Shown here: one piece after another, positions 5,556 to 11,417 of the stretch | Position numbering within the stretch: position 1 is the stretch's first letter | How the letters are laid out: every line of letters begins with the position of its first letter | DNA from: Planctomycetota bacterium | GTDB taxonomy: Bacteria > Planctomycetota > Phycisphaerae > Phycisphaerales > SM1A02 | Direction: 5' to 3' | Length of the DNA: 25,861 nucleotides | Assembly (NCBI GenBank): GCA_009924765.1 | Contig: RFQW01000001.1 | Location: 1-25,861, forward strand | The notes under the pieces: model-generated | What the model saw: the letters and a program-made list of their open reading frames with translations, nothing else | Databases searched by the model: none | What the model was told of the DNA's origin: nothing | Translations under genes and position numbers: made by a program

Positions 5556-6671
5556 TCAGGCGGGGAACAGGGCCTCGAGCAGCTCCACGATGCCCTTGCC
5601 CTGCGTGGCGATGGTCTCCAGGATGGGTCGTCCGCCGGCCACATCCAGCAGTTCGCGCACCAGCTTGGCCTCGCCCGCGTGGTCGGCCTTGTTGGCCACG
5701 AACACGTCGGCGATCTCCAGGATGCCCGCCTTGTCCATCTGCACGCTGTCGCCCATGCCCGGCACCACCACGACCGCGGTGCGATCGACATGGTTGCGGA
5801 TGGCGACGTCGTTCTGGCCAGCGCCCACGGTCTCGACGACCACTTCGTCGAAGCCGGCCTCGCCCAGCAGCCCAAGGATGTCGGGCAGGCTCGCGTAGTC
5901 CTCGCCCACGATCGCCAGCGAGCGGTAGAACACCTTCTCGTCGACGGCGTTGAAGTCGACGCGCAGGCGATCGCCAAGCAATGCGCCGCCCGTGATCGGG
6001 CTCATGGGGTCGAACGCGATCACGGCCATGCGGCGGCCGCGGCGAACCGCTTCGCCCACCATGGCCGCCACCAGCGTGCTCTTGCCAGCGCCGGGTGCGC
6101 CGGTGATGCCCACCACGCGCTTGGGTCGACGCCCGGCCATCTTGCCCGTGGGCTTGGCGTGCGCCATGGAAATGCGGCGTGCCAGCACGGCCTCGGCGCT
6201 GGGCGAAGTGAGCGGCACATGCGCCTTCACCGCCTCGCGCACGCTGTCCACGATGGTGTCCAGGCCCGCACCCGTGTGGAAGATGCGGTGCACGCCCGCG
6301 TCGAGCAGGGGCTTCACGTCTTCCTTCGGAATGATGCCGCCCACGTTCACGACCATGTCGGATCGGCCCAGCTTGCGGCACTCGTCGAGCAGACGCGGCA
6401 CCAGCACCAGATGGCTGTTGCTCATCATGCTGCAGGCGATGCAGTCCGCGTCCTCGTCGCGCGCGCCGATGGCCAGGCTGCGCGGCGTCTGCCACAGACC
6501 GCTGTAGATCACGTGCACGCCGCTGTCGCGCAGCAGGCGCGCGATCAGCTTCACGCCGCGGTCATGGCCGTCGAGCCCCATCTTGCCAAGCAGCACGCGT
6601 GGACGGTGCGGCAAATCGGCGCAGCGATCGCGCTTCTCGATGGGTGTGGTTGGTTCAGTGGTGCCGTGCAC
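5556..6671 (-). CDS. Cobalamin-binding domain (methylmalonyl-CoA mutase C-terminal type) fused to a MeaB/ArgK-like GTPase
   Basis: The N-half has RVLLGKMGLDGHDRG (DxHxxG) and VGGIIP. The C-half has GITGAPGAGKST (P-loop), DPMSPITGGALLGDR, ETVGAGQ and NKAD. GTG 6671 has AAGGA 9 nt upstream. Confidence 0.88.
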   Translation of the reverse strand: MHGTTEPTTPIEKRDRCADLPHRPRVLLGKMGLDGHDRGVKLIARLLRDSGVHVIYSGLWQTPRSLAIGARDEDADCIACSMMSNSHLVLVPRLLDECRKLGRSDMVVNVGGIIPKEDVKPLLDAGVHRIFHTGAGLDTIVDSVREAVKAHVPLTSPSAEAVLARRISMAHAKPTGKMAGRRPKRVVGITGAPGAGKSTLVAAMVGEAVRRGRRMAVIAFDPMSPITGGALLGDRLRVDFNAVDEKVFYRSLAIVGEDYASLPDILGLLGEAGFDEVVVETVGAGQNDVAIRNHVDRTAVVVVPGMGDSVQMDKAGILEIADVFVANKADHAGEAKLVRELLDVAGGRPILETIATQGKGIVELLEALFPA

Positions 6672-6691
6672 GGGAAACCATCCTTGGTCGT

Positions 6692-7384
6692 TCAGGATGC
6701 GGGGGTGTTGGCCGCGTCGTCGGAGGGCTGTGCACCGACGCGCTTGGCATCCGGCGTCCACTCGTCCGGATGCAGTCGGTGCGCGATGGCACCGATGATC
6801 AGGTGCATGTTCTTGTGATCGTGGTCGTCGAGCAGGATGGTGCGGCCATCCTTCAGCACCGCTTTGGCGGTCCAGGTGCTGCGGCGGTCACCCGTGGCGC
6901 TGCACCAGCGGCTCATGTCGATGTCCACGATGTCGGCAGCCGACACCGATTCGCTGGGCGTGCGCAGCGTGCCGTCGTCCTCGAGGCGATAGGGCTTCAT
7001 CCTGGTGCGGATGATGGGCCACACGAACATGGGCACGCCCAGGACGCCGCAGCCCACGATGTACAGCCACAGCTGCATGGGGCGGTCGTACACTGCCGGC
7101 TTCGCGGGCACCGTGCTGCCGTATCGCGCGCGGATGCCGTCGAGGTCCTTCTTGGCATCCTCCATCTGCTTGATCTGCGCGTCGTCGAGCGGCTTGGTTT
7201 CAGCCTGCTTCTCCAGCGTGGAGCGGGTGTCCTTGGCCTTCTCGTAGATGGCCGAGTCGACCTCGAGTCGCGGGATCTTGATGGCGTAGTCGTACCAGCC
7301 CCACACGCCGAACACCGCGCACAGCACTGCGAAACCGACATTGCGCCAGAGAGTGAACGGCTGGATGCCTGTGACGATCGCCAT
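6692..7384 (-). CDS. Hypothetical membrane protein with two predicted TM helices
   Basis: 230 aa from ATG 7384 with high-GC codon usage. Hydrophobic segments are VGFAVLCAVFGVWGWYDY and LWLYIVGCGVLGVPMFVW. TACACT -10-like box lies 9 nt upstream. Confidence 0.75.
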   Translation of the reverse strand: MAIVTGIQPFTLWRNVGFAVLCAVFGVWGWYDYAIKIPRLEVDSAIYEKAKDTRSTLEKQAETKPLDDAQIKQMEDAKKDLDGIRARYGSTVPAKPAVYDRPMQLWLYIVGCGVLGVPMFVWPIIRTRMKPYRLEDDGTLRTPSESVSAADIVDIDMSRWCSATGDRRSTWTAKAVLKDGRTILLDDHDHKNMHLIIGAIAHRLHPDEWTPDAKRVGAQPSDDAANTPAS

Positions 7385-7421
7385 GGGTGCAGAAGTGTAC
7401 TGCAACGCGTGACCCGCAACG

Positions 7422-7453
7422 CAGAAGCCCTCGCGCGGGGGCGAGGGCTTCTG
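7422..7453. terminator. Perfect 13-bp stem-loop, terminator-like
   Basis: CAGAAGCCCTCGC-gcgggg-GCGAGGGCTTCTG. The U-tract is weak on both strands. Confidence 0.5.
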
Positions 7454-7480
7454 GAACCGGCACGAGGCCGGCATTCAAAT

Positions 7481-7673
7481 CGCGATGGGGGCGGCCTTGT
7501 TGGGAGGCGGCCACTTCGACTGGTCCGGCTTCCGTTCCGGACCATGCGGCCGCCGGTAATGGCCGCGATCGAAGGGTCGGGACAAGCGGTCTCCGTGCTC
7601 GTCCGACCAGTGCAAGGAGGGTCCATCCACTCGCCGACCTTGGTTCCTCCCCTTGGGGTCCGACCCCATCGCG
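7481..7673. ncRNA. Candidate structured ncRNA (~193 nt), possibly 6S RNA
   Basis: Ends pair (CGCGATGGGG 7481-7490 / CCCCATCGCG 7664-7673), with a nested GGGAGG/CCTCCC helix and several internal hairpins. It is intergenic and flanked by two separate stem-loops. Identity is not verified. Confidence 0.5.
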
Positions 7674-7681
7674 TGCGTGCG

Positions 7682-7719
7682 CCCGATTCGCCGTCGGAGC
7701 AGTGACGAAGCGAATCAGG
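7682..7719. terminator. Stem-loop just downstream of the nrdJ stop
   Basis: CCCGATTCGC (7682-7691) pairs with GCGAATCAGG (7710-7719) with one imperfect pair, plus an inner CGTC/GACG pairing. Confidence 0.4.
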
Positions 7720-7737
7720 CGTTGTCCAATGCGTCCG

Positions 7738-10700
7738 TCAGCTGCAGCCCATGCTGTTGCCGCAGTTGAGGCACCGGTAGCAGGTGCCGTTCCGGACGGT
7801 GATCGATCCGCATCCGTCGCAGGCGGGCGCGTCACCCATGAGGGTGGCCGTTGCCTGATCGAGCACGCTGACGCGCTTGGTGGCGACGGTGGTCTCCGTG
7901 ACCACGCTCACCCCAGCCGAATGTGCGCTCGTCGACACGTCCGACTCGGTGATCTGCGTGGTCTCGGACAGGATCGAGGCGATCCTCTCCGAGCCGCGCG
8001 GGGAATCCGTGGACGACCCTGACGCGCCCATGTCGCTCGACGAAATCCGGTCGCCGAGGCGAGCGGATGCGCCGTCCGTGCGATGCTGCCATGCTGTGTC
8101 CTCCTTGACGCCACGTCCGTGATGATCGGCCAGCGGCTCCGCCGTGACCGGTGCGGCGACCGACGCAGGTCGCCGCGGTGCGTTCTGATCCCGATAGCCG
8201 GCGATGAACTGCATGCCCATCCACCGGAAGATGTAGTCCACCAGGCTCTTCGCGAAGGGGATGTCCGAGTTGGTGGTCATGCCCATCGGCTCGAAGCGCT
8301 GGTGCGCGAACTTGTTCACCAGGCTCTCCACCGGCACGCCGTACTGCAGGGCCACGCTGATCGCGGTGCCCAGCGAGTCCATCAGGCCGCCGATGGTGGA
8401 ACCTTCCTTCGCCATGGTGATGAAGAGCTCGCCCGGGCGGCCGTCCTCGTAGAGACCCACGATGAGGTAGCCCTCGTGGCCCGCCACGTTGAACTTGTGC
8501 GTGATGCTGCCGCGCGTCTCGTTCAGACGACGACGCATGGGCCGCTCGATCACGCGCTCCACCACGCGCTCCACGATGCGCTCCACGAATCGGTCACCCT
8601 CCACCAGGACCGAGCTTTCCTCGGCCACGGGGGATTCGAACGATGTCGTCGAGGTCGATGTCGCAGGCACCGCTGCCGCACGCGTCGCGCCCTGGCTGGA
8701 CGCCGCCGAAGCCACGGGCTCCCCCGCGGTGGCGGACTCCTCCAGGCCTTCGGTGTCCTCGTCTTCCTGCTCCACATCGGTCTTGGTGGAGAGGGGCTGG
8801 CTCAGCTTGCTGCCGTCGCGGTACAGGGCGTTGGCCTTCAGGCCCAACTCCCAGCTCATGCGGTACGCGTCGCCGATCTGCTCGACCGTCGCCTCCGAAG
8901 CCATGTTGATGGTCTTCGAGATGGCGCCCGAGATGAAGGGCTGCGCCGCGGCCATCATGTGGATGTGGCCTTCGGGGCGGATGAACCGCGTGCCGGTGGG
9001 GCCACACTTGTTGGCGCAGTCGAACACCGCCAGATGCTCCGCCTTCAGGTGCGGTGCACCTTCCACGGTCTGGGTGCCGCAGATTCGGCGGTTCAGCGAC
9101 TCGATCTGCTTCTTCTTCAGGCCGAGCACCTTCAGGCCGTTGAACTTGCCGTCGGCCTTGGCCGCAGCGGGGTCAAGGCCGGCGGCCTCGAGCACCTGCG
9201 TGGGCATGCTCCATGCGCTGAACGCGAAGCCCAGCTCGAACATCATGGGCAACTGGTTCTCGAGTGCCACCAGGTTGTCGCCGGTGTAGCCCTTGGCGGT
9301 CAGGTGCTGACGGAACGTGGGGCCCGTGGCCGGAATGCGGCCATCCGCATCGGGCATGGGGGTGTCCAGGTTCAGCGTGCCCATGACGTGCGCCAGGATC
9401 TCGTCGGTCTGCGTGGCGCTGTAGCCGAGGGCCTTCATCGCCGGACGCAGGCTCTGGTTGGCGATCTTGAAGTAGCCGCCGCCGGCGAGCTTCTTGAACT
9501 TGGTCAGCGCGAAGTCGGGCTCCACGCCGGTGGTGTCGCAGTCCATCAGCAGGCCGATGGTGCCGGTGGGGGCGATCACGGTGACCTGCGCGTTGCGGAA
9601 ACCGAACTTGGTTCCGAACAGCAGCGCGTCGTCCCATGCGGCGAGCGAACGGGCGAGCATGTCGCCGGCGTTCGCCAGCGGAACCTTGCCGGCCTTGAAG
9701 ATGCCGTGGTCGATCGACACCGGACGGATGCGCAGCGACTCCCACTCGGAGGCGTCGCGAGCGGTGCCGTAGGCCGCGCGGCGATGGTTGCGGATGACCC
9801 GCAGCATCTCCTCGCGGTTCTCGGCGAAGCCATCGAACGCGCCGTGCTCGGCGGCCAGCAGGGCGCTGGCGGCGTAGCTGCGACCGGTCAGGATGGCGCT
9901 GAAGGCGCCGCGCGACCTTCATCGCTGTCGTAGGGAATGCCCGCCTGCATCAGCAGTGCGCCCAGGTTGGCGTAGCCAAGACCCAGCGTGCGGTACTTCC
10001 AGCTGCGCTCGGCGATCTCCTTGGAGGGGAACGCCGCCATCAGCACGCTGATCTCCAGCACCACGGTCCACAGGCTGATCGCGTGCTCGTAGGCCTCGAG
10101 GTCGAAGTTGCGGGTCTCGGGGTCGTACAGCTTGAGCAGGTTGATGCTGGCCAGGTTGCACGCCGTGTTGTCCAGGAACATGTATTCGCTGCACGGATTG
10201 CTGGCGTTGATGCGGCCACCGTTGGGGCAGGTGTGCCAGGCGTTGATGGTGCTGTCGTACTGCAGGCCCGGATCGGCGCAGCGCCATGCGGCGAAGCTGA
10301 TCTGGTTCCACAGGTCGCGCGCCTTCAGCTTCTTGGCCACCTTGCCGTCGGTGCGACGGATCAGGTTCCAGTCGGCGTCGGCATCGACGGCTTCCATGAA
10401 GGCATCGCTCAGGCGCACGGAGTTGTTGCTGTTCTGGCCGCTGACGGTGTAGTAGCTCTCGCCGTTGAAGTCGTAGTCAAGCTTCAGGCCGAGGCGCTGC
10501 GCCGTCTCCTTTTGCTCGGGGGTGAAGTGCTTGGCGCCTTCCACCAGCGCTGCCACCTTCAGCTCCTCGCGCACCTTCCAGTTGACGAAGGCCTCGACAT
10601 CGGGGTGATCCACGTCCAGGCACACCATCTTGGCGGCGCGACGCGTGGTGCCACCGCTCTTGATGGCGCCGGCGGCGCGGTCGCCGATCTTCAGGAAGCT

Positions 10701-11417
10701 CATCAGGCCGCTCGACTTGCCGCCACCCGACAGCGACTCGTTCTCGCCGCGGACCGAGCTGAAGTTGGTGCCGGTGCCCGAACCGTACTTGAACAGGCGG
10801 GCCTCGCGGGTCCACAGGTCCATGATGCCGCCTTCGCCCACCAGATCATCGGCCACGGCCTGGATGAAGCAGGCGTGCGGCTGCGGATGGGTGTACGCAT
10901 CGGTGGCCAGCGTCGGCGTGCCGGTGGCGTGATCGGTGATCCAGTGGCCCTGCGCGGGGCCGCTGATGCCGTAGGCGTAGTTCAGGCCGGTGTTGAACCA
11001 CTGCGGGCTGTTGGGCGCCGCGACCTGGTTCAGCAGCATCCACGCGATCTCGTCGTAGAACGCCTGCGCATCCTTGGCGCTGGCGAAGTAGCCGAACTTC
11101 TCGCCCCAGTGGCGCCAGCAGCCGGCGAGGCGGTGCACAACCTGCTTCACCGAGCGCTCGGGGCCGAGCACGGGCTTGCCGCTCGCATCGACCTTGGGCT
11201 GGCCATCGGTGCCGATCTGCGGCACGCCGGCCTTGCGGAAGTACTTGCTCACCACGATGTCGGTGGCGAGCTGACTCCAGGTGGCGGGGATTTCCGCGTC
11301 GTTCATCTCGAAGACGGTGCTGCCGTCACTGTTGGAGATGCGACTGGAGCGGGTGCTCCACTCGATCGAGGCGTACACATCCTTGTTTGGTTCGGTGAAG
11401 CGTCGGTGAATTCGCAT
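7738..11417 (-). CDS. nrdJ: Class II (adenosylcobalamin-dependent) ribonucleotide reductase with C-terminal TSCPD-like and Zn-ribbon domains; frame broken at ~9905-9915
   Basis: Motifs PNSPQWFNTG, QPHACFIQ, GSGTG, NPCSEY (thiyl radical Cys), TIAPTGT-like VIAPTGTI, QPFISGAISKTIN and terminal CDGC..CLNC..GCS. It is split into ORFs 9888-11417 and 7738-9807, but the second frame continues upstream as GAFSAILTGRSYA. Confidence 0.92.

Follow-up and report, generated by a model that had tools for sequence, protein, structure and literature searches.

A structured RNA element in the 3′ tail of nrdJ messages of Phycisphaerales, with candidate CsrA-docking loops

We describe a structured RNA element encoded directly after nrdJ, the gene for the class II, B12-dependent ribonucleotide reductase, in a 25,861-nt stretch of Planctomycetota DNA (Phycisphaerales, SM1A02; assembly GCA_009924765.1, contig RFQW01000001.1, positions 1 to 25,861), hereafter called the window, whose numbering is used throughout. 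The element is very probably a co-transcribed, structured 3′ untranslated region (UTR) of the nrdJ mRNA, running on the minus strand from ~7737 to ~7480 (~257 nt). It constitutes a new RNA family. Structured and probably protein-binding UTR elements are already known as a kind, and the novelty lies in its position at the 3′ end of a single metabolic mRNA, in the four-way scaffold and in the host lineage. Two invariant loops of the fold may act as a docking site for a CsrA-type protein, a function that we propose only tentatively from the sequence pattern; structured nrdJ tail and inferred mechanism together form what we consider the best explanation as a whole, though one to which we give somewhat less than even confidence. 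The original prediction for 7481-7673 had proposed an unannotated structured RNA with a closing stem, either a divergent 6S RNA or a new class; the conserved structured RNA and its closing stem are borne out, and of the two identities offered the new family stands and 6S RNA does not.

Elaborate covarying folds with invariant loops almost always have a specific job, as ribozyme, riboswitch or protein platform, and to our knowledge nearly all such bacterial folds are 5′ leaders or separate genes. The present fold sits at the 3′ terminus of the message that encodes the window's only B12-dependent ribonucleotide reductase, in a family of abundant freshwater and marine Phycisphaerales, and its RNA is well represented in lake libraries.

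Conservation and linkage to nrdJ

The element begins 17 nt past the nrdJ stop codon (TGA, 7740-7738; the C-terminal residues, read from the sequence, are ...GTCYRCLNCGNSMGCS*), within a 353-nt gap (7385-7737) whose two neighbors, nrdJ and a membrane-protein gene, are both on the minus strand. All 20 genomes of the genus (20/20) carry it, with 76-97% identity over 7478-7727, and another genus shares a 49-nt core at 96% identity. Our R1 covariance model, built on a 79-nt core, retrieves exactly one copy in 27 of 39 further family genomes and has no match in 111 genomes from the order's five other families. A broader core model, R2, has no match outside the family among 150 genomes across the phylum. 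The core models miss true divergent copies, and these searches therefore do not show absence outside the family. When five model-negative family genomes were inspected, four had a recognizable divergent version directly after nrdJ, and the fifth (G090, of low GC content) had a very divergent form only.

At all 45 loci compared, 20 from the genus and 25 from the rest of the family, the element is on the nrdJ strand and directly 3′ of nrdJ, 8-480 nt past the stop codon. Covariance-model matches in the same place, 19 strong and ~10 weak, were also obtained among 80 nrdJ loci from named public metagenome-assembled genomes (MAGs) of freshwater and marine Phycisphaerales/Phycisphaerae. Further divergent copies after nrdJ can be recognized by eye in other Phycisphaerales families: the tails of families f3 and f6 contain the core words GGCGAGUGGAUGGAAC, and that of family f5 is a minimal form of ~120 nt with three A-N-GGA motifs and a terminator. 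The nrdJ tail of family f2 (L157, G035) has three GCCACC repeats and a terminator with a CCACC loop, and is possibly a different solution at the same place.

The far side of the element is occupied in some genomes by the membrane-protein gene, at various distances, and in others by a convergent gene, namely class 1 fructose-1,6-bisphosphatase (fbp) at L038 and L051 and other plausible convergent genes at L035, L043 and L044. Because the nrdJ side is constant and the far side changes, the element belongs to nrdJ and not to the downstream gene. This fixed position 17 nt past the stop codon, on the nrdJ strand at every locus, together with RNA contigs that join the element to the nrdJ coding region (see below), does not support the stand-alone RNA that had been envisaged.

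An intrinsic terminator of conserved sequence, CCCCCGRGC..CCCACC(A/U)C..GCYCGGGGG followed by a U run, closes the nrdJ tail in most of the other genera and families; it is preceded by UCCUCCCC and lies ~100-300 nt after the core (L034, L035, L039, L040, L049, L052, L067, L068, L103, L146, L148, L155, L156, L158). The CCCACC-terminator pattern is no more frequent than a reversed-pattern control, and the instance that forms a hairpin in G072 and G086 is the nrdJ one, so it is not a general terminator; it seems to be a part of the element that was lost in the window's genus.

No Rfam 15 family matches the element when the whole window is searched at the gathering score, and at E<=10 the region 7300-7850 gives chance matches only (flavivirus repeat, mir-1538, Burkholderia sRNA terminator). 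The search of Rfam, including 6S RNA (RF00013) and the riboswitches, that had been suggested as a check thus gave nothing beyond chance matches. The literature on nrdJ 3′-UTR RNA, Planctomycetes 6S RNA, CL500-3 and RNA motif lists yielded no description of the element.

Strand, fold and covariation

Base pairing identifies the minus strand as the functional one. Read on that strand, the consensus structure of the genus alignment contains 60 G·U cells versus 8 A·C cells, and that of the family core alignment 41 versus 12; the G·U pairs would turn into mismatches on the plus strand. On the same strand, U-run intrinsic terminators follow the element in other genera. The emphasis that the original prediction put on plus-strand words was therefore misplaced. 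A scan of 7200-7900 for a sigma-70 promoter and a U-tract terminator gave no match.

Against 200 dinucleotide shuffles (ViennaRNA), the minimum free energy of the plus strand is -103.4 versus -87.6 +/- 4.9 kcal/mol (z -3.2) and that of the minus strand -104.5 versus -81.3 +/- 4.3 kcal/mol (z -5.4), with 0/200 shuffles matching native stability on each strand. The fold is thus not a chance product of GC content. The minimum-free-energy fold also recovers the helices listed in the original prediction (7481-7490/7664-7673 and 7502-7507/7646-7651, the hairpins 7521-7528/7537-7544, 7546-7551/7561-7566 and 7575-7580/7603-7608, and CTTCGA/TCGAAG closing a three-way junction), all in their places in the sequence, and the flanking hairpins 7422-7453 and 7682-7719 are present; the alternative ACTGGTC/GACCAGT pairing is lost in G009-type relatives and is not confirmed.

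The RNA consists of a hairpin, A, followed by a domain that is closed by helix P1, in which a rod leads to a near-perfect four-way junction. Its parts, listed 5′ to 3′ on the minus strand, are as follows.

7682-7719, minus: hairpin A, a 10-bp stem (7719-7710/7691-7682) with an 18-nt loop; 6 of 10 pairs change on both sides, and 92% of cells are paired
7674-7681, minus: short conserved linker CGCACGCA from hairpin A to P1 (alignment A1)
7664-7673, minus: 5′ strand of the closing helix P1, CGCGAUGGGG; invariant in the genus and compensated between genera
7646-7651, minus: 5′ strand of P2, GGGAGG, pairing with CCUCCC 7507-7502 (minimum-free-energy fold)
7636-7639, minus: junction strand GGUC, pairing with GGCC 7512-7509 in a conserved GUGGCC/GGUGRCC segment; 87.5% of cells are paired, with a U·G to U-A change
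7611-7635, minus: P3 hairpin, GGCGAG 7635-7630/CUUGCA 7616-7611, with loop UGGAUGGACCCUC at 7629-7617 (covariation and divergent homologues)
7575-7608, minus: P4 hairpin, GGUCGG 7608-7603/CCGACC 7580-7575, with inner helix GAGC/GCUU (covariation in 34 sequences)
7514-7574, minus: P5, a variable arm, with covarying pairs in its base, P5a and P5b
7481-7490, minus: 3′ strand of P1, CCCCAUCGCG, which holds the last paired base of the RNA (minimum-free-energy fold, compensation between genera)
7474-7487, minus: apparent 3′ end of the transcript, 0-7 nt past the foot of P1 (RNA contigs of four studies)

Our genus alignment holds 16 distinct sequences, 15 from the genus and 1 from a neighboring genus, and 58 proposed pairs. 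Standard pairing is found in 94.6% of the cells over these pairs and falls to 36-49% in a control with partners slid by 1-3 columns; 12 pairs have both sides changed, so that homologues with covarying pairs, which the original prediction had called for, do exist. Wider comparison adds to this: in 34 family sequences the outer helix of P4 has both sides changed in 5 of 6 pairs with 96.6% paired, and P1, which is unchanged within the genus, is compensated between genera (GCGGUGGGG/CCCCACCGC, UCGCAGUGGA/UCCACUGCGA, GCGACGAGAGCG/CGCUCUCGUCGC and AAGGGCUUCU/AGAAGCCCUU).

The closing rod is made of P1, a short intervening helix and P2, whose GGGAGG/CCUCCC becomes AGGCA/UGCCU in G009-type relatives. 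The junction helix GGUC/GGCC is a weakly supported proposal, within which GRCC is conserved across the family. In P3, the GUG/CAC pairing drawn by RNAalifold is broken without compensation in the wider family and was replaced by GGCGAG/CUYGCC; one pair of the helix occurs as GU in 19, GC in 7 and AU in 6 sequences, and divergent homologues have GCGCC/GGCGC and GCGAGC/GCUCGC. The inner helix of P4 has the consensus GAGC/GCUY. P5 in the window's genus is itself a three-way junction, with the base CUUCGA/UCGAAG, P5a (7566-7561/7551-7546) and P5b (7544-7537/7528-7521, loop AACGGAAG), and in other genera (G024 and others) it is a single hairpin. The linkers of the main junction measure 0-3 nt, which makes the meeting of P2, P3, P4 and P5 a nearly perfect four-way junction.

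Deep conservation of unpaired bases is found in three loops of the element: G-R-A-H-GGA in the P3 loop, present in all homologues, with GGA in the window at 7628-7626 and 7624-7622; G-CA-Y-GGA in the P4 loop (ACGGAGACC, 7596-7588), where CA-N-GGA has its GGA at 7594-7592 and GCAYGGA is conserved; and CUCCGA in the loop of hairpin A, where the 3′ part, CUCCGAC (7699-7693), hardly varies between genera and families. The CCCACC loop of the terminator is a fourth such item, in other genera only. Of all unpaired positions, those of the P3 and P4 motifs show the deepest conservation. Two tertiary contacts were considered: the CUCCG loop of hairpin A kissing CGGAG of the P4 loop or GUCGG of the junction would allow 4-5 bp and shows no covariation, and pairing of the CCCACC terminator loop with GGGYGA is compensated in a few cases and not in most.

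Several other identities were rejected. The 2.53-Mb assembly and each of the relatives contain the gap sequence just once, and it is therefore not a mobile repeat of the miniature inverted-repeat transposable element (MITE) or repetitive extragenic palindrome (REP) type. Nor is it coding: the sole sizeable overlapping open reading frame (ORF), of 64 codons on the minus strand (7475-7669), contains single-base gaps in G009-type relatives, and substitutions in its region follow base pairing. A scan with ARAGORN gave no tRNA or tmRNA. Divergent signal recognition particle (SRP) RNA, RNase P RNA and tmRNA were discarded as identities because all three of these housekeeping RNAs are encoded elsewhere.

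Expression in metatranscriptomes

The stretch 7380-7800 is present in 18 metatranscriptome runs (~20 lake and freshwater studies), some of which comprise only 40 million letters. We compared four runs from four lake studies over 6900-8400, in which RNA contigs cover 7480-8400+, 7482-7801, 7474-8304 and 7487-8151. Every one of these contigs runs through the stop codon and so links nrdJ coding sequence with the element, and they stop at 7480, 7482, 7474 and 7487, each <=7 nt from the last P1 base, with no loose ends; such concordance of contig ends is a weak hint. In the same four runs no RNA contig covers 7155-7460, where the hairpin 7453-7422 lies and the next gene starts, again a weak hint only. 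Versions from related species occur in the same libraries, and one contig with a depth of 56.7 spans the nrdJ end and the core. Together with the genomic evidence, the contigs are most simply read as an RNA that is co-transcribed with nrdJ and terminates at the foot of P1. Its 3′ end could arise within the AU-rich AUUUGAAU, the sole stretch of its kind following the apparent 3′ end, or by trimming back to the helix.

Proposed function and alternatives

The mechanism that we propose has two parts. Flush and GC-rich, P1 leaves no single-stranded 3′ overhang and would therefore cap the nrdJ message against 3′-to-5′ exonucleases. At the four-way junction the arms would stack two by two, which could bring the P3 and P4 loops side by side, so that the two invariant A-N-GGA loops, 33 nt apart, might form a dual docking site for a dimeric protein of the CsrA/Rsm family; binding could either titrate that protein in parallel with nrdJ transcription or determine how long the nrdJ message lasts. 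The consensus selected in vitro for CsrA is RUACARGGAUGU, its GGA being displayed in a hairpin loop, and a CsrA dimer bridges sites 10-63 nt apart (PMC7652899). Both junction loops of the element match the CsrA/RsmE rule (GGA in a hairpin loop, an A two bases upstream, CA before), and their spacing falls within the range of the dimer. The P3 loop GAUGGA and the P4 loop CACGGA are kept in all aligned homologues of family f1 and in most divergent ones, and some divergent tails have 3-6 A-N-GGA motifs. CsrA (PF02599) is encoded in 60/61 genomes of the family and 81/81 of the order, usually in two copies. The paralogues of the window genome lie at G000:C224:8038-8600 and G000:C97:1921-2088; one of the pair is directly downstream of fliW, in the manner of a partner switch, and the second, whose Pfam score is lower, is an orphan. 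This combination of a fliW-adjacent csrA and an orphan without the FliW antagonist was seen in the five genomes checked and is a pattern across the order.

Several observations weigh against this account. The A.GGA count of 114 versus 50 expected (z 9) speaks for it, but the excess derives solely from the two inherited core sites, and the variable flanks outside the core show no GGA enrichment. Known CsrA sponges carry 5-22 GGA loops versus 2-3 per RNA here. The aligned P4 loop reads GGU or GGC in two divergent homologues (alignment A4), and the family f2 version is without A-N-GGA hairpins. CsrA copy number gives no signal of co-distribution with the RNA, because CsrA is present throughout the order with or without a covariance-model match. 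CsrA leaves the invariant CUCCGAC loop and the CCCACC terminator loop of other genera unexplained. As to the transcript itself, contigs can give neither strand, exact ends, abundance nor proof of a single transcript.

Among the alternatives, a purely structural 3′ cap and insulator, which would end and protect the operon transcript and shield the next promoter with no specific partner, is in our view unlikely. RNA contigs that end at the foot of P1, a promoter of its own for the next gene, and a classic terminator added after the element in many relatives all suit it; a simple hairpin would suffice for that role, however, and neither near-invariant loops over many genera nor a conserved four-way junction is necessary for blocking exonucleases. 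Quite unlikely, in our judgment, is a trans-acting small RNA (sRNA) that is cut from the nrdJ 3′ UTR and pairs with other mRNAs through the conserved loops (CUCCGAC, GGAUGGACCCUCC and ACGGAG). It would account for the contig 7482-7801 (320 nt) of run X10, with a depth of 5.45 versus 2.5 for the next coding-region contig, and for a stretch, 7699-7669, that is complementary in 29 of 31 nt (E 3e-5) to codons ~10-20 of a leaderless lipoprotein mRNA encoded on another contig (G000:C588:1044-1073, L002; protein MSRRLPTRATACVRRFAVGALMCAFALTGC...). That complementarity, however, is limited to the window genome and a 97%-identical sister, and the orthologues in 15 other genus genomes do not exceed cross-genome controls (RNAduplex over-extends on long inputs, and its energies were used only as an own-versus-cross comparison); moreover, no promoter-like hexamers were found between the nrdJ stop and hairpin A, and a processed 5′ end is something contigs cannot show. 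We give rather little credence to an aptamer at the 3′ end, akin to a riboswitch, in which a metabolite (adenosylcobalamin, a dNTP or an NTP) would stabilize the junction and P1 and so set the exonuclease protection of the nrdJ message. Covarying helices around invariant loop and junction nucleotides are the hallmark pattern of aptamers, and the strict linkage to a single metabolic gene, the B12-related genes nearby and a 3′ end exactly at P1 point the same way; yet the junction has almost no unpaired nucleotides for a pocket, even E<=10 gave no match to any riboswitch family, canonical cobalamin riboswitches turn up in these genomes at other positions and not here, and we know of no precedent for a 3′-end riboswitch. 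A broader version, which we hold to be no likelier, is a 3′-end sensor in which binding of a partner at the four-way junction would lock P1 and so determine if the nrdJ mRNA decays from that end; candidates for the partner are metabolites such as adenosylcobalamin or a deoxynucleotide, and the orphan CsrA paralogue.

The two known families that the element calls to mind fare far worse. A divergent 6S RNA, an RNA polymerase-binding mimic of an open promoter, is very improbable in spite of the size of ~190 nt, the long closing stem, the abundance in metatranscriptomes and a 6S slot that is formally empty (no RF00013 match at E<=1 in 5 family genomes): RF00013 has no match at the gathering score in the window or at E<=10 in 7300-7850, the RNA is physically continuous with nrdJ mRNA, and its taxonomic range is narrow, the core model having no match outside the family in the 150 phylum genomes, although divergent copies follow nrdJ in other families of the order. 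The supported fold is moreover a four-way junction with a ~75-nt 5′ side that holds two hairpins and a ~6-nt 3′ side, and hence has no 6S central bubble. We consider a highly divergent cobalamin riboswitch the least credible of all. It was prompted by GAGCACGGAGACC, a word that we take to be superficially similar to a B12 box, and by the B12 context, the element adjoining the B12-dependent NrdJ and a B12-binding/MeaB fusion. Yet RF00174 and clan CL00101 have no match here at E<=10 and reach 41-74 bits at other positions in these genomes; GAGCACGGAGACC forms a hairpin loop instead of a junction strand; the Rfam consensus does not fit when aligned; and the element is 3′ of nrdJ rather than a 5′ leader, with a next gene that is leaderless or convergent.

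Should the GGA loops of the nrdJ tail indeed dock CsrA, the regulator would gain an RNA partner outside Proteobacteria and a link to DNA-precursor supply; should they bind something else, a new RNA-partner pair would be at hand. A 3′-end sensor, if real, would be a 3′-terminal riboswitch-like or decoy mechanism and would provide the first RNA partner of CsrA outside Proteobacteria, connecting global post-transcriptional control with DNA-precursor synthesis. Either way, the family merits a covariance model in public libraries and is tractable for binding and probing.

Neighboring genes

The features that flank the element are as follows.

7738-9807, minus: 3′ part of nrdJ, class II, B12-dependent ribonucleotide reductase (Pfam Ribonuc_red_lgC and TSCPD)
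7422-7453, strand unassigned: 13-bp hairpin of very high stability, located between the RNA and the next promoter, without a U tract and outside the RNA-contig cover
7382-7399, minus: -10-like TACACT (7399-7394) and ATG (7384-7382) of the membrane-protein gene, the far boundary of the element, conserved in relatives

In the window nrdJ appears as two minus-strand ORFs, 9888-11417 (509 codons) and 7738-9807 (689 codons). The frame of the C-terminal part continues as good NrdJ sequence (GAFSAILTGRSYAASALLAAEHGAF...) across the stop of the N-terminal part at 9888-9890, which indicates a 1-nt frameshift near 9895-9915 and not a two-gene arrangement; relatives have nrdJ as a single frame of 1190-1310 codons. 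The frameshift is probably an assembly indel of the MAG, and possibly a recent break.

The neighbor downstream in the direction of transcription encodes a 231-aa membrane protein. A listed 260-aa ORF opens at an in-frame ATG upstream; we set the start at 7384 because CATG is conserved there in relatives. All relatives have a -10-like TACACT/TACAAT 7-9 nt ahead of this ATG, and the gene therefore looks leaderless with its own promoter, in agreement with the earlier view that the RNA is not the leader of the downstream gene. The same leaderless-type TACACT/TACAAT is conserved at the lipoprotein gene in 17/17 genus genomes examined (5′ regions of L161-L180 and L002). The hairpin at 7422-7453 is terminator- or insulator-like, and relatives have hairpins of differing sequence in its position.

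Next after the membrane protein comes a fusion of a B12-binding domain with a MeaB-type GTPase (5556-6761, minus). Every genus genome with a sufficiently long stretch has this fusion after nrdJ and the membrane protein, as do some other genera, and its retained position suggests a cobalamin-handling unit attached to the B12-dependent reductase. Elsewhere in the window genome, cobalamin riboswitch matches occur at G000:C35:3126-3271 (41.3 bits, above threshold) and G000:C228:550-671 (26.6 bits, below threshold).

Comparison with known systems

Like 6S RNA (RF00013), the element measures ~190 nt, is closed by a long helix and is abundant in RNA libraries; it differs in having no central bubble or model match and in its four-way junction, co-transcription with nrdJ and narrow range. 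Regulatory 3′ UTRs and 3′-UTR-derived sRNAs of bacteria, such as the icaR 3′ UTR and those of the CpxQ type, are short, weakly structured seed regions with a terminator. They resemble the element as functional RNA past a stop codon that is transcribed with the gene, whereas the element is a closed domain of ~190 nt with a conserved junction, for which conserved target complementarity was not found.

The closest functional comparison is with the RNAs that titrate CsrA/RsmE, CsrB and RsmX-Y-Z, and with decoys embedded in mRNAs. The likeness lies in A-N-GGA/CA-N-GGA motifs in hairpin loops at a spacing that would suit one dimer, in an abundant RNA, in the presence of CsrA genes, and in an intrinsic terminator after the RNAs of relatives. 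In contrast to those RNAs, the element has neither sequence nor covariance-model similarity to them, displays 2-5 motifs on a covarying four-way junction, and is located in an mRNA 3′ UTR rather than in a separate gene; the binding proposed here is putative. We know of no RNA antagonist of CsrA in Planctomycetota.

Finally, the element resembles orphan structured RNAs of the raiA, OLE and GOLLD type in its covarying fold of several helices, invariant loops, lineage restriction and expression; it differs from them in being outside these families (Rfam 15) and in being fixed 3′ of a single gene.

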